The notes below the pieces were generated by a model. It was not told where the DNA came from. It saw only the letters and a list, made by a program, of their open reading frames with translations, and did no database searches. Positions 3,342 through 20,618 of a DNA stretch of 64,000 nt are shown piece by piece (position 1 is the first letter of the stretch; each line of letters begins with the position of its first letter). This DNA comes from Escherichia phage fjerdesal, in the sequence record MN850605.1. The stretch is one strand, 5' to 3'. Made by a program: the position numbers and the translations under genes.

Positions 3342-3418
3342 TTTTTGAATCTCCTAGTTTAAGGACTTTACTTAGTGGGGAAGGTCATTCCCTCCCCGTT
3401 GATTAGTAATTTACTGCA
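3342..3418 (-). promoter_or_regulatory. conserved intercistronic module, variant A (stop codon - GGGGAAGG/CCTTCCCC hairpin - CCACTAAAT - AGGAGA - ATG)
   Basis: near-identical copies at 4269, 4831, 6054, 6925, 8451. Confidence 0.55.
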
Positions 3419-3674
3419 TGTTGGCGTATGTTGCAAGCCTTTTTTCGTTGTATTTTGTCAGAATCTCACAAGATAAAACATCATATTTTGTAACCGCTTT
3501 GCCTTTGTCGAGGTCAAAGAATCCGAACGCTTTACCATCTTTGAATCCGACAACTTCGTAAGATTCTTTGATGATTTCACCATTGAACAAATCACTTTCG
3601 ATACGGTGAAATAATGCTACATCTTCTTTGTCGGTTGCAATTTGTAAAAGTGTGGTTAATTCTACGTTTTCCAT
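3411..3674 (-). CDS. hypothetical early protein
   Basis: ORF; stop codon lies inside the conserved module. Confidence 0.5.
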   Translation of the reverse strand: MENVELTTLLQIATDKEDVALFHRIESDLFNGEIIKESYEVVGFKDGKAFGFFDLDKGKAVTKYDVLSCEILTKYNEKRLATYANMQ

Positions 3675-3745
3675 CTTGATGCCCCTAGTTTAAGGATTTT
3701 ATTGAGTGGGGGAGGTCATCCCCCGTTAATGAGTAATTTACAGAT
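3675..3745 (-). promoter_or_regulatory. conserved intercistronic module, degenerate variant A
   Basis: ctagtttaaggatttt...ggggaggtcatcccccgttaatgagtaatttac. Confidence 0.45.
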
Positions 3746-4268
3746 TTTTGATTGTCTCGTCAATGTCTTTTTCAATAGCTTTTAAAGTTTTTTCTAAGTT
3801 CTTGATATTGAAAGATAAACCCTCTCCCAATGTTTTGCTGTAACCACTAGGGCGCAAGTCATGCAGTTCGATTTCTTCCACTTCGAAGAGACTAACCAAC
3901 TCACCGCTTACACTGTAAGCCATTGAAACAGTATTTACAGGGGCTTTATAGAACTTGTTTAAGGACTTGATAGAACGCTCATAAGCCATTTTATAACCGT
4001 TTAAAAGGTCTTTAACGTGGTTGCGAACGTTTTTACACTCATCTAAGTAAATCCCTAAGAATAGCGGTAATAACTCTGCTACAGCTTGCATAAAGTGAGA
4101 GACTACAACGGTTGCAACATTACGACGATGTACATAATAAGCCCCATTTTCTGATTTAGTGATGGTTGCAAAGTGTACCCCATTGCAGCGAAATTCGTAG
4201 GTATCTTTAACAGGCTTAGCCATTACAGCATTTGAACGAATGTAGTTGATAGCTTGAAATTTGTTCAT
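3738..4268 (-). CDS. hypothetical early protein
   Basis: ORF 3738-4313 trimmed to ATG at 4268 (MNKFQ...) which directly follows the conserved module and SD. Confidence 0.5.
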   Translation of the reverse strand: MNKFQAINYIRSNAVMAKPVKDTYEFRCNGVHFATITKSENGAYYVHRRNVATVVVSHFMQAVAELLPLFLGIYLDECKNVRNHVKDLLNGYKMAYERSIKSLNKFYKAPVNTVSMAYSVSGELVSLFEVEEIELHDLRPSGYSKTLGEGLSFNIKNLEKTLKAIEKDIDETIKNL

Positions 4269-4345
4269 TTTTGAATCTCCTAGTTTAAGGACTTTATTTA
4301 GTGGGGAGGTCATTACCTCCCGTTGATTAGTAATTTACTTGTTTT
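4269..4345 (-). promoter_or_regulatory. conserved intercistronic module, variant A
   Basis: catttttgaatctcctagtttaaggactttatttagtggggaggtcattacctcccgttgattagtaatttac. Confidence 0.55.
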
Positions 4346-4488
4346 GATATCTGATTGCAAGCAATTTTTTAAGTTTATCTATAAAGAATCTTTTAAGTTA
4401 ATCCCTTTTAGATAAACCCCCTCGAACAAATCTACCAATGTCAAGGGGCGTTGTCAATACTTTTTGAAAGTTTTTTGTAAGTTATTGA

Positions 4489-4830
4489 TTAACTGATGAA
4501 TATTTTTTCAGGTTTTACATAGCTGATACGCTGACTTTTTAGCAGGTCATCCCAGATTAACGCGGCGATATGGGCATAACCGGATTCACGTAAAAGCTTC
4601 ATTGTTTTACTTCTCGTTTCAAAACGGCTTGCGTAGTACTCACTATTTAAAACCGTTTTATTCCCTTCGTTATCTACATGGATAATCTGCATCACTTGAA
4701 AGGGGCTTGTGTCCTCGCCTTTGTTCCACTGTTCAAAGTATTTTAGGCACTGCATAGGTGACATCTTATCACTTACTTGAGTTGACCAAGATGAATTTTC
4801 TTTATCGGTAATTACGGTTACATAAGCCAT
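4489..4830 (-). CDS. hypothetical early protein
   Basis: ORF preceded by module variant A. Confidence 0.5.
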   Translation of the reverse strand: MAYVTVITDKENSSWSTQVSDKMSPMQCLKYFEQWNKGEDTSPFQVMQIIHVDNEGNKTVLNSEYYASRFETRSKTMKLLRESGYAHIAALIWDDLLKSQRISYVKPEKIFIS

Positions 4831-4910
4831 TTTTGAATCTCCTAGTTTAAGGATTGTACTTAGTGGGGAAGGTCATTCCCTCCCCGTTGATTGACAATTT
4901 ACAGATTTTT
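4831..4910 (-). promoter_or_regulatory. conserved intercistronic module, variant A
   Basis: sequence identity to the other variant A copies. Confidence 0.55.
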
Positions 4911-4921
4911 ATCAGGCTTGT

Positions 4922-5155
4922 CTAGTCTTTTTCAATGATAATTTCATACTGACCATCTACGCTGTCAAAATAGATACCGTCTTCATCTTCTGTCTTAAAG
5001 TAACATTGTATATCATCACTAGCGGGATAGTCTTGTCTTGCTATCTGACAGACCTGAACAGCATTTTCTTTACTTCCTGTAAACTCCTCAAGCCCTTTAA
5101 AATCACATGAATGACCATTACAAATAGAAAGGATAAGATAAACGGTTGTAAGCAT
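4922..5155 (-). CDS. hypothetical small protein with hydrophobic N-terminus (possible signal peptide)
   Basis: MLTTVYLILSICNG...; preceded by a hairpin rather than the standard module. Confidence 0.4.
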   Translation of the reverse strand: MLTTVYLILSICNGHSCDFKGLEEFTGSKENAVQVCQIARQDYPASDDIQCYFKTEDEDGIYFDSVDGQYEIIIEKD

Positions 5156-5172
5156 GATTTAAGCCTCTTAAA

Positions 5173-5189
5173 AGCCCCTGTGAGGGGCT
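5173..5189 (-). terminator. hairpin AGCCCC-TGTGA-GGGGCT followed by T-run on the minus strand
   Basis: seen in sequence after the stop of 5222-5764. Confidence 0.5.
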
Positions 5190-5221
5190 AATCAGTGTTT
5201 ATAAGGTGATTGCATAGGTTT

Positions 5222-5764
5222 TTAGAAAAAGCTCTTTAAATCTCTCTCTGTGATGTTTCCCGCTAGTGTATCCATGATGTCACAAAAAACCTGAATACTA
5301 TCCGACTGTTGAATACTTTTAGCAAGAAGCTCCAGAGACTCATCAAGATAATTTAAATTTGGGTTATCCAATGAAGGAAGACAAAAAGGCGAAAACATCG
5401 CATTAAACTCGGTTACGTAAACCTTTTTAATCCAATTTAAATCGAAGTATTCTGTAAAACTTGCTACGCCAGACATATTATCACAAGAATAATCATCATT
5501 CAGGTCATCCTCTGGGATATCAAGTTCTAAGATAACAATATTTTGGGTTTTCATCTGGAAAGCGGCCGTAATAGTGGCATTACCTAACGCTTGCTGGATG
5601 CCTTCGGCTGTTATCTCTTCCTCATCGTCGCCATAGATTTTATTTTCTGGATACACGTAAAAATTGCCGTCCATGTCCGAACAATTCCATGCACCTGATG
5701 GCTTGTCACCGTTATTAATCAGGTTGAGGAAATTTTCTTGAGTAGTACCGTGAAAGCATTTCAT
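5222..5764 (-). CDS. hypothetical acidic early protein
   Basis: ORF; D/E-rich. Confidence 0.5.
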   Translation of the reverse strand: MKCFHGTTQENFLNLINNGDKPSGAWNCSDMDGNFYVYPENKIYGDDEEEITAEGIQQALGNATITAAFQMKTQNIVILELDIPEDDLNDDYSCDNMSGVASFTEYFDLNWIKKVYVTEFNAMFSPFCLPSLDNPNLNYLDESLELLAKSIQQSDSIQVFCDIMDTLAGNITERDLKSFF

Positions 5765-5849
5765 TTTTGAATCTCCAGTTTAGGATTTAGTGGTAAAGCT
5801 CTTTATCTGGGGCTTACTTTATCGAACTATAAGCCCCTTGTAAAGTACT
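5765..5849 (-). promoter_or_regulatory. conserved intercistronic module, variant B (hairpin GGGGCTTA...TAAGCCCC - CTTTACCACTAAATCC - GGAGA - ATG)
   Basis: copies at 6581, 7635, 7999. Confidence 0.55.
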
Positions 5850-6053
5850 TTATTTGTTATTTTTTACTACTTTTAAAACCGCACGATAGCCTAAGCAATA
5901 GGAATCACCGAAGAGCGACCGACCCATGAAGGAGTCCTCTGTAATATCTTTCGCCGTGACGGTTTTTTCTACGCCGTGAAAGAGAACTACATCACCGACT
6001 TTAATATCTTTGATGTGTGTAGTTTCAATGGTTAAACCGTTAATAATAGCCAT
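5850..6053 (-). CDS. hypothetical early protein
   Basis: ORF preceded by module. Confidence 0.45.
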   Translation of the reverse strand: MAIINGLTIETTHIKDIKVGDVVLFHGVEKTVTAKDITEDSFMGRSLFGDSYCLGYRAVLKVVKNNK

Positions 6054-6128
6054 TTTTGAATCTCCAGTTTAGGACTTTATTTAGTGGGGAAGGTCATTCC
6101 CGCCCCGTTGATGTGTAATTTAATCTAT
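6054..6128 (-). promoter_or_regulatory. conserved intercistronic module, variant A
   Basis: sequence identity to other variant A copies. Confidence 0.55.
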
Positions 6129-6160
6129 CTGAAAACCAATGTCAACAATTTTTTTTTTTT

Positions 6161-6580
6161 TTAGAGTTCTGCATAAATTGCATCACAGATACCACGAAAA
6201 TCATGATTTGTCAAATTACGTTGTAACCAAGTGGCGAAAAAGTCAGCGATTGCAAAGTTAGCGTCATACTCGACAGATAGCCACACTTTAACAGCAAACC
6301 GAAACATTTTCAAATCAAGCTCTTTATTCATTACCTTAGATTTGCCTAACATGTCGGACATTTCATATTGTGCACCGTCTAGCGTGATACCTGCTGCAAC
6401 GTCAGCCAATGAGTTTTTTACGTTTTCAACGTCTAAGATAACGCTTTGAATCTTCCCAATAATGTTGTGCAATGTTTCGTCCGGTGCTGATGACGTAATA
6501 ACATTAATCCGGTTAACGGTCAAACGTGCTTTTAAGATTGATAACTCGCGATTATTAATAGCCATTTTTAAGTTCTCCAA
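6161..6580 (-). CDS. hypothetical early protein (N-terminus MENLKMAI shared with 7726-7998)
   Basis: ORF; first 8 codons are part of the repeated module. Confidence 0.5.
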   Translation of the reverse strand: MENLKMAINNRELSILKARLTVNRINVITSSAPDETLHNIIGKIQSVILDVENVKNSLADVAAGITLDGAQYEMSDMLGKSKVMNKELDLKMFRFAVKVWLSVEYDANFAIADFFATWLQRNLTNHDFRGICDAIYAEL

Positions 6581-6651
6581 TTTAGGATTTAGTGGTAAAG
6601 CTCTTTATCTGGGGCTTACTTTATCGAACTATAAGCCCCTTGTAAAGTACT
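6581..6651 (-). promoter_or_regulatory. conserved intercistronic module, variant B
   Basis: near-identical to 7999-8069. Confidence 0.55.
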
Positions 6652-6924
6652 TTATACTAAATGCAGCTTTTTACCTTTTACTATGATGTAACTCGATGCG
6701 CTATTGCTTTGCACATCCTGATAAATTCTGCGCAAACGGCCTTCGTAGTATACTTTCCAACTGGTTGGAATCTTTTTCCCGTATCCTGTAGCAGTTTTTT
6801 GTAGTCCTGCAAGTTGCCAATCTAAGATATGTTGTTCGGCTTGTAAATCCTCGAAGTGCATTACACCGTTCACATAGTGACGAAGGGTTACGTTTAAGGT
6901 GCGACCGTTGTTAGTAGTATACAT
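6652..6924 (-). CDS. hypothetical early protein
   Basis: ORF preceded by module variant A. Confidence 0.45.
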   Translation of the reverse strand: MYTTNNGRTLNVTLRHYVNGVMHFEDLQAEQHILDWQLAGLQKTATGYGKKIPTSWKVYYEGRLRRIYQDVQSNSASSYIIVKGKKLHLV

Positions 6925-7000
6925 TTTGAATCTCCTAGTTTAAGGACTTTGTTTAGTGGGGAGGTCATTACCTCCCGTTGATTAGTAATTTACTTGTTTT
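6925..7000 (-). promoter_or_regulatory. conserved intercistronic module, variant A
   Basis: sequence identity to other variant A copies. Confidence 0.55.
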
Positions 7001-7011
7001 AAAAACCAAAA

Positions 7012-7344
7012 TCAAGAGAAATTTTTTCGTTTGCTCAATTCTTGAACAATTACAGCGTAGTAGTCTTTTAAGTCACTGACATTTAAAGCATTTATCAGAG
7101 AATTATAATCATCGACTAACTGAAAATCATCTTTGAAAATGTCGCTGATTTGATAAGTTTTTGATTGAAATCTGAAGCTCATTTCTAACCGTTTTATTTG
7201 TTCATCACTTAAACGCTCCAGAAAGCTCATTACAAGGCTATTATTGACCTGTTGCGTGATTGCCTTATTTGCTAGATTATAGGCTTTATATGCCTTATAT
7301 AGCGCGAAAATGGCAATGATTGCAGTGATACCAGTCATTAACAT
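7012..7344 (-). CDS. hypothetical membrane protein (N-terminal transmembrane helix)
   Basis: MLMTGITAIIAIFALYKAY... Confidence 0.45.
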   Translation of the reverse strand: MLMTGITAIIAIFALYKAYKAYNLANKAITQQVNNSLVMSFLERLSDEQIKRLEMSFRFQSKTYQISDIFKDDFQLVDDYNSLINALNVSDLKDYYAVIVQELSKRKNFS

Positions 7345-7634
7345 GGTGTTTCCTCTTTACGTGATACTTTGCCATTTACAGTTATCTCATAAGAATCTAG
7401 TAAGTCACTTTTAGATTTTACTGGACTTTTAAAAGTATCATCATAAATATTTACTTGCAATACAGGTTTTTTATACTCCCTGCAACTATTCCATAAACAA
7501 ATCACTACACGACGGCCTTTTATTTTACCGTGCAACCATTCCATAACATCATGATTATTTCTTGATGTCTCGATAAAATCAATTTTGTTGAGTAACTTGC
7601 TTAGATTTTCACGAACTTTATTGGATAATTTCAT
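7338..7634 (-). CDS. hypothetical early protein
   Basis: ORF preceded by module. Confidence 0.45.
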   Translation of the reverse strand: MKLSNKVRENLSKLLNKIDFIETSRNNHDVMEWLHGKIKGRRVVICLWNSCREYKKPVLQVNIYDDTFKSPVKSKSDLLDSYEITVNGKVSRKEETPC

Positions 7635-7725
7635 TTTTGAGTCTCCTAGTTTAAGGGTTAATTTGATAAAGCTCTTTATCTGGGGCTTAAGATATCAACT
7701 TTTAAGCCCCTTGTAAAGTACTTTA
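7635..7725 (-). promoter_or_regulatory. conserved intercistronic module, variant B-like
   Basis: hairpin GGGGCTTAAGATATCAACTTTTAAGCCCC plus conserved leader. Confidence 0.5.
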
Positions 7726-7998
7726 TCAGATTAAATTGCCAGTTAATGATAAGTGCATTTTGTAACCTTGTTTAGTGAATACGTTCACTTTACCGAGTGT
7801 TTTTACACCTTTAAAAAGGTTATTTGAACTGCGTTTTAAGGTTAAATGTTTATCAGCCTTCACGCCCCACCTTACATTAGATTGTTTTCCGTTGTCAACC
7901 ACTTTCCCGCATAACTTTTTAGCCATAACGCGAGCGTCATCACGAGTTTTTGCAGCAATTACAACGTTTTTGATAATAGCCATTTTTAAGTTCTCCAA
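7726..7998 (-). CDS. hypothetical basic early protein (N-terminus MENLKMAI shared with 6161-6580)
   Basis: ORF preceded by module variant B. Confidence 0.45.
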   Translation of the reverse strand: MENLKMAIIKNVVIAAKTRDDARVMAKKLCGKVVDNGKQSNVRWGVKADKHLTLKRSSNNLFKGVKTLGKVNVFTKQGYKMHLSLTGNLI

Positions 7999-8069
7999 TT
8001 TAGGATTTAGTGGTAAAGCTCTTTATCTGGGGCTTACTTTATCGAACTATAAGCCCCTTGTAAAGTACT
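7999..8069 (-). promoter_or_regulatory. conserved intercistronic module, variant B
   Basis: near-identical to 6581-6651. Confidence 0.55.
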
Positions 8070-8450
8070 TTATTTAATTTTGAAGATAGTTACGTAACCA
8101 TCACTACCGATTATTTGAGACACTCCAGCTTTTTCTACTTGATAGCCCATATTTTCAAGATGATAAACAGCATCATCATAACCATATGCGCCACCCTGAT
8201 AACGTCTCTTATCGCATTTTATCAGGTTTTTACCACGTCCCGCAAGTGCATGCAAAATGGCTTTTTCACTTGAAAGAGTACCATCTAGCATTGTCGCCGT
8301 GTAATGGTTGATTTTATTCCCGTTAATATCATACTTGAAATTGAACGAGTGAACAACAATAACGTTACCTTTAAAATTCTCATCAAGTGACTTCTCCAGT
8401 ACGCTACGAAAGTTGTCTTTGTTGATGAATTTAGGTGCACGATATTTCAT
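8070..8450 (-). CDS. hypothetical early protein (first gene of the leftward early cluster)
   Basis: ORF preceded by module variant A carrying a poly-C tract. Confidence 0.5.
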   Translation of the reverse strand: MKYRAPKFINKDNFRSVLEKSLDENFKGNVIVVHSFNFKYDINGNKINHYTATMLDGTLSSEKAILHALAGRGKNLIKCDKRRYQGGAYGYDDAVYHLENMGYQVEKAGVSQIIGSDGYVTIFKIK

Positions 8451-8520
8451 TTTTGAATCTCCTAGTTTAAGGACTTTAATTTTTGGGGTCCGGCATTTCC
8501 CCCCCCCCCCCGTTGATGCA
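8451..8520 (-). promoter_or_regulatory. conserved module variant A in which the hairpin is replaced by a 13-nt homopolymeric C tract (8499-8511)
   Basis: seen in sequence. Confidence 0.5.
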
Positions 8521-8727
8521 AATACTAGATAACCCCGTTCAAAGAGTCAAGAAAATTTTAAAAATATTTTTGGGAAAACTGTAATGAAACGTGCGCACAC
8601 GACTACCACAAAACAGAACACAAATCAAGAATTATTTTTCAATCCGCTACAAATTTTTCTCTTGACTTTTGGGGAGAGGGGGAGTAAGAGGGGGAGAGGG
8701 GTTGGTCTGGCTCTCTATAAAAACCTA

Positions 8728-8905
8728 CCTGCACAATTCTAAAATGATTTTTCTTGCCCGACCTGAGCGGGGTCTGCACGTTTTGAAAATGAAAAAGCTC
8801 TTTGGAGATTACCTGCACAGTTTGAAAATGAATTTTTCTCTTTGGAGTTCAAAATACTCTCTACAGATTTCTCTATAGAGATATACCTGCACAATTCTGA
8901 AATGA
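8728..8905. repeat. four direct repeats of about 20 bp (CCTGCACARTTYTRAAATGA) at 8728, 8774, 8812 and 8886, plus a perfect 12-bp palindrome TCTCTATAGAGA (8870-8881)
   Basis: seen in sequence; the region has only a low-complexity 69-aa ORF. Confidence 0.55.
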
Positions 8906-8978
8906 AAAAGCCCTCCTTACCTGAAAAATTTACCAGATAAGAAAGGCTTAGTCTATTGTGAATATCCTACGAAGTTTC

Positions 8979-9764
8979 TTAGTTCTTTGCGGCTAAGAAG
9001 GTAACTTCTGGCGAAGAGAAAACTGTCTCGATATCCTCATCAGTTCTTGCATAGATGTAAGTATCTGCATCACTGCCAAATGTTACTGCAATCCTGTGAT
9101 TGCTCTTCGACAGGTGGGTAACTAGAGCGTTACTTAGAGACATCTTTTCAACCGGAGGGTTACTTTGATGTATCTTACCTTTTCTTCGTCTGAAGAGGGT
9201 AACTGCATTATCCGTGAACACAACTACACCTGCGAAGTATTCTGGTTCACAGTAGTTCTTCCAACCTGAGCGTAACTTGTGGTACATCTCTCCTTCATAG
9301 ACATATAGATAAACATCTACGCTCTTCATTACCTGATTGATGATAACTGTGACGGCTTGAGGGTCCAACCCACCGATACCTGCACCAATCATAGGTAAAC
9401 CAACTTTCTTCAACTGATTAACTTCACAGTATCTGTTAAGTTGCTTCAAAGATGACTCTAAAGCACTGTATCGGGCATCTTTACCAGTCTTAAGCTGAGT
9501 GTAAAGGTTAGCTATACGACCTTGTTTTAAACGTGCTACGGAGAAATTACCTAGTAAATTTTCACAGGGTTTGTGGCCTATACCACCTGCATATAGATAA
9601 ACTTCTGTATCGGTCTCATATGCTTCTGGGTAAAGTTTAGAAATCTTGTCAGCGATACCTGCACCCATTAAATTCATACAGTTGCAACCGTGACCAATGA
9701 TGTCAAACTTACCTTTATCAAATGCAGCAAAGATGTCACCATTGATGATTTTTACAATACCCAT
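8979..9764 (-). CDS. macro-domain protein (ADP-ribose binding or processing) with C-terminal extension
   Basis: N-terminal pattern GDIF...DIIGHGCNCMNLMGAGIA and later PMIGAGIGG resemble macro-domain motifs (GDIT...IVNAAN...GGGV; A-G-I-Y-G). Confidence 0.5.
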   Translation of the reverse strand: MGIVKIINGDIFAAFDKGKFDIIGHGCNCMNLMGAGIADKISKLYPEAYETDTEVYLYAGGIGHKPCENLLGNFSVARLKQGRIANLYTQLKTGKDARYSALESSLKQLNRYCEVNQLKKVGLPMIGAGIGGLDPQAVTVIINQVMKSVDVYLYVYEGEMYHKLRSGWKNYCEPEYFAGVVVFTDNAVTLFRRRKGKIHQSNPPVEKMSLSNALVTHLSKSNHRIAVTFGSDADTYIYARTDEDIETVFSSPEVTFLAAKN

Positions 9765-9965
9765 TTAACATCTCTCCCAAGATTCTTTATCTTCTGAAGG
9801 TTTTACACGTTGCCCTTCATGGTCTACCCAGATGCACCCACAACCTTCACAGATTACTGGCATTGCATAACCAGCTTTAAAGTCATCTTCAGTGATGAGA
9901 CCTTTTAAGTCACCTGTATCACGTCCGAACATTTCGATAGAACAATCTTTGCAGAAGTCAGCCAT
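9765..9965 (-). CDS. small cysteine-rich (zinc-ribbon-like) protein
   Basis: ORF 9765-10043 trimmed to ATG at 9965 with GAGG SD; CxxC...CxGC. Confidence 0.4.
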   Translation of the reverse strand: MADFCKDCSIEMFGRDTGDLKGLITEDDFKAGYAMPVICEGCGCIWVDHEGQRVKPSEDKESWERC

Positions 9966-17894: not shown

Positions 17895-19676
17895 TTAAAG
17901 CTGCTTGTCAATATTATTTCGAATATCACCAAGAGTTGTGTAACCGTACTGCTCAGAGTCGCTAAAGACTAAACGTAAAGCACAAGCTGGATGTTCAAGT
18001 GCATCTGCAAAGCTCTGGAATCCATAGCCATCTACAGCTTTCAAATTCTCACCATCCCACATAGGTGCTACACCACCAAAGGCAGATTTCTTAACACCAC
18101 TATCTGTTTTAGGGTCTTTTGCAAGCATAATCTCTTTGCCACCAATGCTTGCAAGAGTTGCTTTGACAGCAAATGCAAAGGTGTCACGAGTCATGTACTG
18201 GTAAGTGTAAGAGCCTACACCAAACACCACGTTAGAGCTTGCAAACCCCATTTCATACAGACGCTTTAGGATTTCGTTTGCACGTTCCAACGTGATAGAG
18301 TCACCATAGATAAGTCCAATGTGCTCATCCAGTACCTTAAAACCTTTAGAGTTGATAGTTCCTCCAAAGATGTTATACAATGTCTTAATAGCTCCATCAA
18401 TCTCTGCTACAGGGCGTGTTACAACGTTTGCAGAGCCAACCATATAAGCGTTCTTCAACATCACTGTGTCAGCAACTTCAAAGTCTTCTCTGTCAACAAC
18501 CATTTCGTAGCCTTCTGACAGTAGCCATCCAGCAATACCATAGCTGACGTTTTCAAGCTTCATGTTCAGAACAGCATTCAGCATTGTGTCACTGGCTTCC
18601 AGCTTACTAAGGTGCTCATAATAAGCCTTTTTAGCGCACTCTAAGTGGATTGCTTTATAACCTGTGACAATGTGTACAGGGTCTCCAGAGTCAGGACGAA
18701 TTACCAGTTTGCCATCACGTTCCATAATTTCTTTACGGAGTGCTGGTAAGATTTCTGACACAGTTCTCCAGAAGTTATAAGTATCTGAAACAATACTTGC
18801 AATACCCGTTGGGTAAGTTTCTGTTAAGAAACGACGGAAGGTTTGTAACTCACCTTTAAAGCGTCTTTCTTCTTCAATCAACTCATTGCCACCTTCCCAA
18901 GCAATGTTTGCACACATTACAGAGTGCTCAGTGGCTGGTACAGAGCTACCAATATCAGAGATTGGGTAGGACTGTCCATAGATTCGTTTAGCCGTATACA
19001 CAGCAGGGAAGCTATCAGTTCCTTTAAAGCTGGTTAAGTGACCTACAGCGTTAAATGCGTCATCAGTAAAGCCGGACATACCACGCATAGCAAAATCATG
19101 GCACTGATAAGGTAAATGTAAGTCATTGTCACAAGTAAGGTCAGCCCACTTCTTACAGATGCGTTTGTAATGCAATGCAATAGTTGCAATGGTGCAAGCC
19201 TTCCAAATTTCAGCAGAGAAAGCATCTTCCAGATAACCTGCTACCCAATGAAAACCTGAAACAGTGTTCTGAAAGACAATCATCGGGACACGCATTGGAA
19301 CAACTGTGCCTTCTTCTACAGCGTATACTTCAACTGGTAGATAACCTAAGTCGTGAAGTGCTTCCCAATGCTCTCGACCGATAGCATCTTTACCCAGAAC
19401 ACCATTCATGACTTCTAAGATTTCATCAATGGCTTCTTTTTTATCACGTTCAAAGAAAGTGGCATTCCAGTGGTCTATCAAGTAATCTTTAACAAAACGT
19501 TGAATACCAAAAGCCACTACACCGTCAATTGCTAAAGGGCTGTTAAACCATTTATCACTACGTGGTGTTAGGTTGAACATCAAGTACTCTGTTGCGCTAG
19601 GATACTGGTAAACATGACCAGATTTGTAAGCATCTGCATTTAAACCTGCTGGTACTGCATAAAGTGATTTAGTCAT
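17895..19676 (-). CDS. nadV: nicotinamide phosphoribosyltransferase (NAMPT)
   Basis: DAYKSGHVYQYP, HDFAMRGMSG...FKGTDS, VPATEHSV, SIVSDTYNFW, IRPDSGDPV match NAMPT signature blocks. Confidence 0.85.
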   Translation of the reverse strand: MTKSLYAVPAGLNADAYKSGHVYQYPSATEYLMFNLTPRSDKWFNSPLAIDGVVAFGIQRFVKDYLIDHWNATFFERDKKEAIDEILEVMNGVLGKDAIGREHWEALHDLGYLPVEVYAVEEGTVVPMRVPMIVFQNTVSGFHWVAGYLEDAFSAEIWKACTIATIALHYKRICKKWADLTCDNDLHLPYQCHDFAMRGMSGFTDDAFNAVGHLTSFKGTDSFPAVYTAKRIYGQSYPISDIGSSVPATEHSVMCANIAWEGGNELIEEERRFKGELQTFRRFLTETYPTGIASIVSDTYNFWRTVSEILPALRKEIMERDGKLVIRPDSGDPVHIVTGYKAIHLECAKKAYYEHLSKLEASDTMLNAVLNMKLENVSYGIAGWLLSEGYEMVVDREDFEVADTVMLKNAYMVGSANVVTRPVAEIDGAIKTLYNIFGGTINSKGFKVLDEHIGLIYGDSITLERANEILKRLYEMGFASSNVVFGVGSYTYQYMTRDTFAFAVKATLASIGGKEIMLAKDPKTDSGVKKSAFGGVAPMWDGENLKAVDGYGFQSFADALEHPACALRLVFSDSEQYGYTTLGDIRNNIDKQL

Positions 19677-19721: not shown

Positions 19722-20618
19722 TTAATCAAGGTTTGCTACAGTAACTTGGCTATAATGTGTTAAGCCACGGTCTTTAGCTTCTCCTAAAGAGTTTGTAGTG
19801 TAGATATGGTCAATACCATTGTCAAGCAAGTTTTCAACATCTTTAGAGAAGATACCATGTGTTACATAGAGTTCCACACGTTTTGCACCTGCTTCACGAA
19901 GATGCTTAGCTGCTTCTATGAAGGTTCGACCACCATCACAGATATCATCCAGAATCATGACTGTTTTATCTGTCAAATCAACATCATCAAGGATTCGCAT
20001 ACCAGTAATTTCACCAGTCTTAAGGTTACGCACCTTAGACATTGTGATATATGGTTTATCCACCTCTTTAGCGGTCTCTGCAACCTTCTTAGCAGCACCT
20101 GCATCTGGGGCTACTAAGTAATCAACCAGTGGGTCATTTGCATAGTGGACTGCAATCTCCTTTTGAGGAATACTCTGGAAGCAGTTAAACAGGTTATCTG
20201 GAACGTAACTGTGAGGGTCAACTGCACAGACTGCACCAAACCCCATTGCATTTATCTGTTTAGCAAAAACCTTTAAAGCTGCTGCGTCGCCTTTAAACAT
20301 GTGACGGTCATAACGTGCATTTGGTAAGTAGTAAAAGATGACAGTCTTTAAAGCATAATCATGAGGAATTAAATCATCAATTGCTTCTTTAGCAAGTGCC
20401 ACAGCAAACAATGTATCCTTATCATAACCTTTTACAATCATAATCACATTGTTGATGGATGATGCTGCATAAGCAGTGAAATCAACAAACTCTGGCGAAA
20501 AGTGTCCACCAATCTCACCAGAAGGAAATTGGATGATGTTAAACTCATCTTCATGAGTTCCTTTAGTTGGTGAATGAACTGTAACACGGATAGATGTTTT
20601 CATAGTTTTCTCTCTCAA
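19722..20618 (-). CDS. prs: ribose-phosphate pyrophosphokinase (PRPP synthetase)
   Basis: FPSGEIGG, YLPNARYDR, VAPDAGAAK, PRPP-binding VMILDDICDGGRTF, AGAKRVELYVTHGIFS parallel bacterial Prs blocks. Confidence 0.75.
   Translation of the reverse strand: MREKTMKTSIRVTVHSPTKGTHEDEFNIIQFPSGEIGGHFSPEFVDFTAYAASSINNVIMIVKGYDKDTLFAVALAKEAIDDLIPHDYALKTVIFYYLPNARYDRHMFKGDAAALKVFAKQINAMGFGAVCAVDPHSYVPDNLFNCFQSIPQKEIAVHYANDPLVDYLVAPDAGAAKKVAETAKEVDKPYITMSKVRNLKTGEITGMRILDDVDLTDKTVMILDDICDGGRTFIEAAKHLREAGAKRVELYVTHGIFSKDVENLLDNGIDHIYTTNSLGEAKDRGLTHYSQVTVANLD

Follow-up and report, generated by a model that had tools for sequence, protein, structure and literature searches.

In phage T4, knockout of the macro protein Tk.4 sensitizes the phage to DarTG2, and Tk.4 has been named AdfM (anti-DarT factor Macrodomain; bioRxiv 10.1101/2025.11.20.689424); gp104 of phage PhiKZ, also an AdfM, strips ADP-ribose from TNTC single-stranded DNA in vitro (PMC13309987). 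In Vibrio phage Gary, the macro protein Adpp (KNV71_gp137) converts ADP-ribose-1''-phosphate (ADPR-1''-P), the product of the RES-domain defense aRES, to ADP-ribose (ADPR) and so rescues NARP1 (bioRxiv 10.64898/2026.01.28.702374). The founding example of NARP1 is found in phage Bas63, where Adps pyrophosphorylates ADPR and Namat joins the resulting ADPR-PP with nicotinamide to give NAD+. Here we describe a macro gene of a Felixounavirus, Escherichia phage fjerdesal (record MN850605.1), of which we analyzed one stretch of 64,000 nucleotides, referred to below as the window. The gene lies at 8979..9764 on the minus strand, and the open reading frame (ORF) listing and the sequence bear out to the base the coordinates given in a preliminary description of this DNA. 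It is a complete ORF of 261 amino acids (aa) that starts with ATG and has GGGAGAG as its ribosome-binding site. The product is 98.5% identical to bas63_0095 of Bas63 (JohannRWettstein) and is the ortholog of Bas63 gp95 and heid_44. We show that it joins a phage-type macro domain to a C-terminal domain that matches no known family and that is exchanged between near-identical genomes, and we tentatively propose a role for it in counter-defense. The macro half is a member of a known and by now partly understood phage anti-defense family; for its fusion with an orphan domain that evolves fast and is swapped as a cassette we found no earlier description.

The N-terminal half is a macro domain

The first half of the protein was called a macro domain in the preliminary description, and that call holds, as profile and structure searches both returned significant matches. 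The Pfam family Macro (PF01661) aligns with aa 25-141 over profile positions 2-117 of 118 at 32.1 bits (gathering score 22, E=1.2e-7), and sequence matches in the PDB include TARG1/OARD1 (4j5r, E 1e-5), the DarG macrodomains 5m31 and 5m3i, and coronavirus Mac1. The AlphaFold2 model, built with 19 homologs (mean pLDDT 84.2, pTM 0.83), together with the Foldseek matches, has the three-layer alpha/beta/alpha arrangement of macro domains. Specifically, the first ~155 residues retrieve TARG1 and the Thermus and Mycobacterium DarG macrodomains at E~1e-8 with TMt 0.75-0.82, and overall the matches to TARG1, DarG and the chikungunya virus (CHIKV) and SARS-CoV-2 macrodomains span E 1e-8 to 1e-7 and TMt 0.65-0.82.

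Across the 19 homologs there is little or no variation in N28, the G34-A-G36 loop and the G127-A-G-I-G-G132 loop, and the macro motif N86-L-Y-T-Q90 is followed by an 8-residue loop (LKTGKDAR-Y). The catalytic K84 and D125 of TARG1 align to Q90 and G131 of the window protein, and the predicted ADPR-binding loop, aa 29-34, is modeled with low confidence. Purifying selection on the macro half is strong, with ratios of nonsynonymous to synonymous substitution (dN/dS) of 0.01-0.15. We regard it as a genuine ADP-ribose-processing macro domain, in that the domain itself is confirmed and binding or hydrolysis of ADP-ribose is predicted from its sequence and model.

Placement among phage macro proteins

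Relatives of the N-terminal ~155 aa were found by tblastn in 2,793 phage records, only 257 of which cover the full length. The closest characterized relative is T4 Tk.4, with 34-36% identity over ~155 aa (tblastn E~3e-15), and identity to Gary Adpp is 29%. The motifs H-x-C-N-C, MGxG[IV]A, N-x-Y-x-Q and P-x-IG-x-G are common in the alignment to the window protein, T4 Tk.4 and the Adpp type, all of which also have Gln and Gly at the positions of TARG1 Lys84 and Asp125. In a rough neighbor-joining tree the Ounavirinae proteins form one clade within a radiation that holds both T4 Tk.4 and the macro proteins linked to NARP1. Hidden Markov models (HMMs) of DarG from PADLOC and NCBIfam match only the macro half, at 48 bits; T4 Tk.4 scores 36.0 and the Brizo Adpp homolog 36.6. 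The NCBIfam match (NF048014) reaches 48.3 bits against a cutoff of 250 over profile positions 4-153 of 338, and the PADLOC match covers positions 18-146 of 329. PhiKZ gp104 keeps the Lys and reaches 133 bits with the DarG HMM; it is of a different, DarG-like subfamily and shares 24% identity with the window protein. Mutation of its Asn equivalent to the invariant N28 weakens it.

Overall identity and the tree thus do not separate AdfM from Adpp, and the one feature in the sequences that does is the loop after the conserved Gln. NLYTQ followed by 8 residues before the next conserved Tyr occurs in T4 Tk.4 and in 8/8 Ounavirinae macro proteins examined (seven with the conserved C-terminal domain, plus that of phiEa104 with a different one). 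In 12/12 representatives of the NARP1-linked Adpp proteins the loop has 10-15 residues, usually starting Q-Y-x-Y/W; that of phi3 was taken as 15 from the alignment with Brizo and Gary, the printed value of 5 being a regular-expression artifact. A published table of ~128 NARP1-linked macro proteins has 103 with YGQY, 11 with AYTQY and 2 with LYTQ, and both LYTQ entries continue with a long aromatic loop, so that the short type occurs in none of them. The window protein does not have the Adpp loop, which we define, empirically and from this analysis rather than from any published definition, as the Gln plus a 10-15-residue aromatic loop.

The position of the gene differs from that of Adpp genes as well. 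The preliminary description had noted a pair of NAMPT and phosphoribosyl pyrophosphate (PRPP) synthetase genes about 8 kb away; the position was apt and the labels were misnomers, the pair being Namat and Adps of NARP1. The macro gene is 8.1 kb from Namat, and in Bas63 it is gene 95 where the NARP1 genes are 79 and 80, so that the window gene lies 15 genes away and not within the two genes of Adps or Namat that mark Adpp. Of the Felixouna/Moogle loci whose flanks are complete, nearly all have NARP1 8-9.5 kb upstream of their two-domain macro gene; one Kolesnikvirus locus shows a fragment of Namat. Single-domain relatives occupy the equivalent slot next to rIIA and the polynucleotide kinase (PNK) gene with no Namat within 10 kb, which argues that the macro gene is independent of NARP1.

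An orphan C-terminal domain

The remaining part of the protein, of which the preliminary description could recognize no motif, is indeed an orphan. It has no Pfam family (the best match is to a PH domain, at E~0.1 and in one member only), no sequence match in the PDB and no matching solved structure, and against BFVD it retrieves only its own family. It is nevertheless a real domain and not read-through: it is confidently modeled both in context and alone (alone: pLDDT 80.7, pTM 0.71), the two-domain architecture is kept in homologs down to 33% identity, and the distant two-domain homologs all lie in one syntenic slot. P174 and G179 are invariant and Y236 is nearly so, within a domain marked by the motif S-x3-N-x-S-x-P-x2-F-D-G-V. 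Comparison with Sf17 gives dN/dS of 0.44 for this domain and 0.15 for the macro half, and comparison with heid gives 0.07 and 0.01; the C-terminal domain is under purifying selection, more relaxed than that on the macro half, and is the faster-evolving of the two.

When only the C-terminal 106 aa were used, a word-index search for homologs gave no matches, a result limited by the tool, and an exhaustive profile search was used instead. Among 1.84 billion representatives the profile found 13 matches, and the credible ones are macro fusions or partial calls of such fusions. Beta-propeller/PQQ-repeat proteins (P0035, P0037-P0041, P0043) were set aside as spurious matches to a hairpin pattern, with multiple short stretches in their repeats, and two seemingly stand-alone proteins (P0034, P0042) are truncated gene calls from fused genes. 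Searched with the profile, six-frame translations of all fetched loci gave 35 fused ORFs and no separate gene. The 260-aa homolog of Kolesnikvirus phiEa104 was considered as a carrier of the same domain and rejected, its C-terminal half having no detectable homology to the domain (hhalign probability 0.07%). We also observed a metagenomic protein of 339 aa (P0030), a relative in the same macro clade, that is fused to a different C-terminal domain, PF20274; from this protein and the Kolesnikvirus homolog, the macro clade seems prone to gaining varied C-terminal modules.

The C-terminal domain also lies in a segment that is exchanged between alleles. Two IMG/VR sequences (L041, L042) and one from Logan (contig L007) are of Felixounaviruses; they share 97% identity with the window in Namat and Adps and 94-96% in the flanks around the macro gene. 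Their macro gene shares 52% identity with that of the window in the N-terminal domain and 25% in the C-terminal domain; homology breaks at window position ~9622 and returns at ~8792, ~190 nt past the stop. The cluster of this second allele (P0009) has 96 member sequences, against 1,060 of the main type. An exchange of this cassette-like kind that affects a single accessory gene tends to be seen at arms-race loci.

Proposed function and alternatives

The ortholog in Bas63 is dispensable: PhageMaP gives gene 95 a fitness of +0.62 to +1.13 in the conditions retrieved, that is, non-essential. In that work gp95 is not named as a counter to any defense system screened on Bas63, from a panel that excluded DarTG and that predates aRES, and HIDEN-SEQ did not include Felixounaviruses. 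The ortholog in Bas63 and the FelixO1 group is annotated as a "putative phosphatase" by homology alone, and PHROG 335 ("phosphatase") matches aa 1-260 (E=2.8e-113). The preliminary description suggested that the protein might reverse ADP-ribosylation-based defense or process ADPR, and activities of these kinds are on record for its closest characterized relatives, T4 Tk.4/AdfM and Gary Adpp.

We tentatively put forward, as the candidate we favor, that the gene encodes a dispensable counter-defense ADP-ribose hydrolase of the T4 Tk.4/AdfM type with a C-terminal domain for target recognition. An AdfM-like role is favored because of the 8-residue loop, the distance of 15 genes from NARP1 and the single-domain relatives that lie without Namat. 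Also in favor are the DarG HMM score, higher than that of T4 Tk.4, the structural likeness to TARG1 and the DarG macrodomains, the invariant N28, the accessory character of the gene and the arms-race signature of its second allele and faster-evolving C-terminal domain. In the proposed mechanism, the macro half would bind ADP-ribose and hydrolyze the substituent on C1'', and its most likely target would be the ADP-ribose that DarT2-type toxins place on thymidines of phage single-stranded DNA. Removal of ADP-ribose would restore replication and release free ADPR, which could in turn serve as substrate for the phage's own NARP1 enzymes, Adps and Namat, encoded 8 kb upstream; Namat may thus make use, downstream, of ADPR set free by the macro enzyme. 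The C-terminal ~105 residues, a separate, lineage-restricted and fast-evolving domain that is predicted to pack against the macro domain, would supply recognition of a target or partner and not catalysis, by analogy with the toxin-binding second domain of DarG.

Several points weigh against this proposal. Removal of ADP-ribose from DNA by T4 Tk.4 is itself deduced from genetic evidence only (bioRxiv 10.1101/2025.11.20.689424), and the AdfM that is active in vitro, PhiKZ gp104, belongs to the different, DarG-like subfamily, at 24% identity. The catalytic Lys and Asp of TARG1 and DarG are replaced by Q90 and G131. The 35-36% identity to the NARP1-linked macro proteins of phiPsa374, VCM and PAK_P4 equals the figure for T4 Tk.4, the neighbor-joining tree carries no support values, and the loop difference between AdfM and Adpp is one of sequence. 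A generic nucleic-acid-binding role for the C-terminal domain finds no support in its net charge, which ranges from -4 to +5 across homologs. Finally, we found in the literature no functional study of the gene or its ortholog, nor of the sensitivity of Felixounaviruses to DarTG.

A less probable explanation, though a strong rival, is that the protein acts as an Adpp in trans, with the macro domain dephosphorylating to ADPR the ADPR-1''-P made by RES NAD+ phosphorylases of the aRES type, so that NARP1 can rebuild NAD+ despite aRES, and with a C-terminal domain that might dock Adps, Namat or aRES. The Poa1p-like family is shared with the biochemically proven Gary Adpp (29% identity, and 35-36% to other NARP1-linked macro proteins), the phage carries NARP1, which is proven in Bas63, and NARP1 stands upstream in nearly all of the Felixouna/Moogle loci described above. 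aRES defeats plain NARP1 and occurs in the hosts E. coli, Klebsiella and Enterobacter; any hydrolysis at C1'' frees ADPR, the substrate of NARP1; and the database label is already that of a phosphatase. The tables of the aRES paper have no Bas63 or Felix entries, and that study scanned only the two genes on either side of NARP1, so that it would miss the window gene. Against an Adpp in trans, the macro gene is outside the NARP1 operon by 15 genes, its product is without the extended aromatic loop that every examined NARP1-linked macro protein has, its single-domain relatives in the equivalent slot have no Namat within 10 kb, and the synteny with NARP1 could be mere conserved gene order of one subfamily.

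The AdfM-like role and the Adpp role in trans are not mutually exclusive. A broader version of the idea, which we regard as speculative and doubtful as a whole, is that the protein is a two-pronged mimic of an antitoxin, in which a Poa1p-like hydrolase would reverse or detoxify ADP-ribosylated DNA or ADPR-1''-P and the new fold would directly bind a variable host defense protein (DarT2 or aRES) or else the NARP1 enzymes of the phage itself. On this idea the two deeply diverged alleles would have different host-target specificities, and Bas63-like phages would hold a distal "NARP1-AP".

The remaining alternatives fare worse. It is unlikely that the enzyme acts on other ADPR conjugates or signals, such as ADP-ribosylated RNA or protein (made by host ADP-ribosyltransferases, of the CmdTAC type and others) or the glycocyclic ADPR (gcADPR) or His-ADPR of Thoeris, with free ADPR as the product. 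Macro domains do act on many 1''- and 2''-linked ADPR derivatives, phage macro proteins have been predicted elsewhere to target soluble signals, and the logic exists in RyDEP, a phage enzyme class that degrades cyclic ADPR (cADPR) signals and feeds NARP1; a fast-evolving C-terminal domain is also compatible with recognition of a variable macromolecular target. No characterized member of the Poa1p-like phage clade has such activities, however, and gp95 was not flagged against any of the defense systems screened on Bas63. Yeast Poa1p, an Appr-1''-p phosphatase of tRNA splicing, invites the further thought that this Poa1p-like protein cleans up by-products of nucleic-acid repair (Appr-1''-p from 2'-phosphotransferase reactions, or O-acetyl-ADP-ribose) together with PNK, the gene of which is found in every syntenic locus 2.3 kb upstream within the operon. 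We consider this housekeeping role very improbable, since the scanned neighbors include no Tpt1/KptA-type gene, allele swapping and a second domain that is orphan and evolves fast would be unusual for a housekeeping enzyme, and the characterized phage relatives are anti-defense factors. That the macro domain is a non-catalytic ADPR binder, sponge or scaffold for a C-terminal domain with the real function, as the missing Lys-Asp pair (Q90, G131) and the low-confidence ADPR-binding loop might suggest, is the least probable of all, given that the Gln/Gly pattern also occurs in the catalytically active Gary Adpp and in T4 Tk.4, that N28 and both glycine-rich loops are invariant and that dN/dS of the macro half is so low.

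Genomic setting

The 1.8 kb around the macro gene share 94-96% identity with KhF2, UAB_Phi87, heid and ~240 other FelixO1-like records. On the minus strand the operon runs from Adps and Namat through small genes, rIIA, rIIB, lysin, PNK, spanins and further small genes to the macro gene, which comes last in what is an early/middle operon. The neighbors of the macro gene are small phage genes, PNK, spanins and rII genes, and no DarT- or ART-like gene was found among those scanned. Because a terminator-like hairpin follows its stop (Table 1), the macro gene is the last of its transcription unit; terminators are annotated at this site in the public records KhF2 and ASO1A.

Table 1. Positions of the macro gene's parts and of related features in the window
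Feature	Position	Strand	Basis or description
Intrinsic-terminator-like hairpin	8908..8949	-	17 pairs then T-run, 30 nt past macro stop; terminator scan
Segment replaced in the P0009-type allele	8793..9621	-	~codon 48 through stop and terminator region; blastn vs L041, L042, L007
Orphan C-terminal domain, aa 158-261 + stop	8979..9293	-	Linker helix, ~six beta-strands, short C-terminal helix
Macro domain, aa 1-157, Poa1p-like phage type	9294..9764	-	Pfam, Foldseek, DarG HMMs, invariant columns, loop typing
66-aa CxxC...CxxC gene	9765..9965	-	Directly upstream; TAA stop abuts macro ATG
Namat (NAMPT-like), second NARP1 enzyme	17895..19676	-	Pfam NAPRTase/NAMPT_N; 98.5% to Bas63 gp80
Adps (PRPS-like ADPR pyrophosphokinase), first NARP1 enzyme	19722..20603	-	Pfam Pribosyltran/Pribosyl_synth; NCBIfam ribP_PPkin; 77.5% to Bas63 gp79

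The 66-aa gene and the macro gene may be translationally coupled. The small protein, with its zinc-ribbon-like motifs CxxC...CxGC, has the same sequence in heid and L007, and it is conserved in Sf17 and in the Felixouna/Moogle loci. We rejected it as an obligate partner of the macro protein, since conservation does not extend to L005 and L006, two-domain loci that are more distant; the former has a different small CxxC protein at this position.

Within NARP1 itself, the contrast between Namat (98.5%) and Adps (77.5%) in identity to Bas63 suggests, from sequence comparison, mosaicism of the operon. The N-terminus of Adps differs from that of Bas63 gp79, and the TTG start assigned by the ORF lister is probably wrong; there is an ATG 5 codons downstream. 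Other macro genes were seen beside NAD-related genes. In three IMG/VR sequences (L070, L071, L078) a single-domain 151-aa macro gene lies directly downstream of a Namat homolog (28-30% identity), which ends ~350-1000 nt upstream, with a homolog of Adps 4-6 kb downstream. Such loci, from large uncultured phages, resemble the NARP1-AP type of arrangement. In Bas62 (JohannJBalmer, MZ501084; locus L012, 26868-29083), a Justusliebigvirus, an elongated 244-aa "putative macrodomain protein" adjoins a "putative phosphoribosyltransferase" and a HAD-like protein, another cluster related to ADPR and NAD. Five further IMG/VR contigs of 84-91 kb (L045-L049) have rIIA, with PNK in L047 and L049, and a single-domain macro gene of 148-166 aa in the equivalent slot. 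No Namat or Adps was found within 10 kb of the macro gene in these five, a hint, from these 10-kb flanks, that NARP1 and the C-terminal domain may occur together.

The small minus-strand genes downstream of the macro gene (3342..8522) have intergenic direct repeats of two families between them, D1 with 7 copies of ~73 nt and D2 with 4 copies of 100 nt, of which two are identical. On the minus strand the copies present a GC-rich hairpin, then AGGAG, then a start codon, and they look like repeated cassettes of terminator and ribosome-binding site, possibly with a promoter, that frame each small early gene. The D1 copy between the macro terminator and the next gene contains a homopolymer of 13 C at 8499..8511 (G13 on the coding side), the sole run of at least 9 G or C in the window, which could be slippage-prone or an assembly artifact. 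ARAGORN finds no tRNA genes in the window, and any tRNA cluster of this phage must therefore lie outside it; the Felixounavirus Bas63 encodes tRNA genes (PhageMaP).

Implications

Felixounaviruses, FelixO1 and Bas63 among them, find wide use in typing of Salmonella and E. coli, in biocontrol and in therapy; NARP1 was discovered in Bas63. A gp95 of the AdfM type would predict and explain resistance of the genus to DarTG2. If it is instead an Adpp in trans, NARP1-AP would exceed the reported 15% of NARP1 phages, and surveys based on operon proximity would under-count it. On either reading, a C-terminal domain that is always fused to a macro enzyme and is cassette-swapped between near-identical genomes would provide a handle on the target specificity of anti-defense proteins.

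Comparison with known systems

Among the described systems, Gary Adpp resembles the window protein in its Poa1p-like macro family and its Gln/Gly pattern, and both phages encode Adps and Namat. Adpp genes lie inside the NARP1 operon or no more than two genes from it and encode single-domain proteins of ~150-170 aa with the 10-15-residue aromatic loop, whereas the window gene lies 15 genes away and encodes two domains with a short loop, at 29% identity to Gary Adpp. DarG also has a macro domain followed by a second domain, and the DarG macrodomains of Taq and Mtb are among the closest solved structures. However, the window protein's C-terminal domain matches neither the C-terminal half of the DarG HMM nor any PDB chain, the protein is far under the NF048014 cutoff, its gene adjoins no DarT gene, and the catalytic Lys is Gln90. 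We take K80 of DarG to be the position equivalent to TARG1 K84 and thus to Q90 of the window protein.

Human TARG1/OARD1 is the best PDB match by both sequence and structure (4j5r, E 1e-5; TMt 0.80), and yeast Poa1p shares the N-terminal motif HxCNC...GGGIA. Both are single-domain cellular enzymes, unlike the window protein, and K84 and D125 of TARG1 contrast with Q90 and G131.

The likeness to T4 Tk.4 extends to HGCNC, MGxG[IV]A, NLYTQ, the 8-residue loop and the GAGIG loop. T4 and the Bas63-type phages both infect E. coli, and Tk.4 and gp95 are both non-essential accessory genes. The slots differ, in that Tk.4 adjoins vs and tk whereas the window gene ends an rIIA-rIIB-PNK operon, and the window phage also has NARP1. 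The T4 Tk.4-type AdfM is a stand-alone macro protein of ~150-160 aa, and Tk.4 itself, a single domain of 155 aa, ends right past the last macro strand, where the window protein, at 261 aa, adds its orphan domain of ~105 aa.

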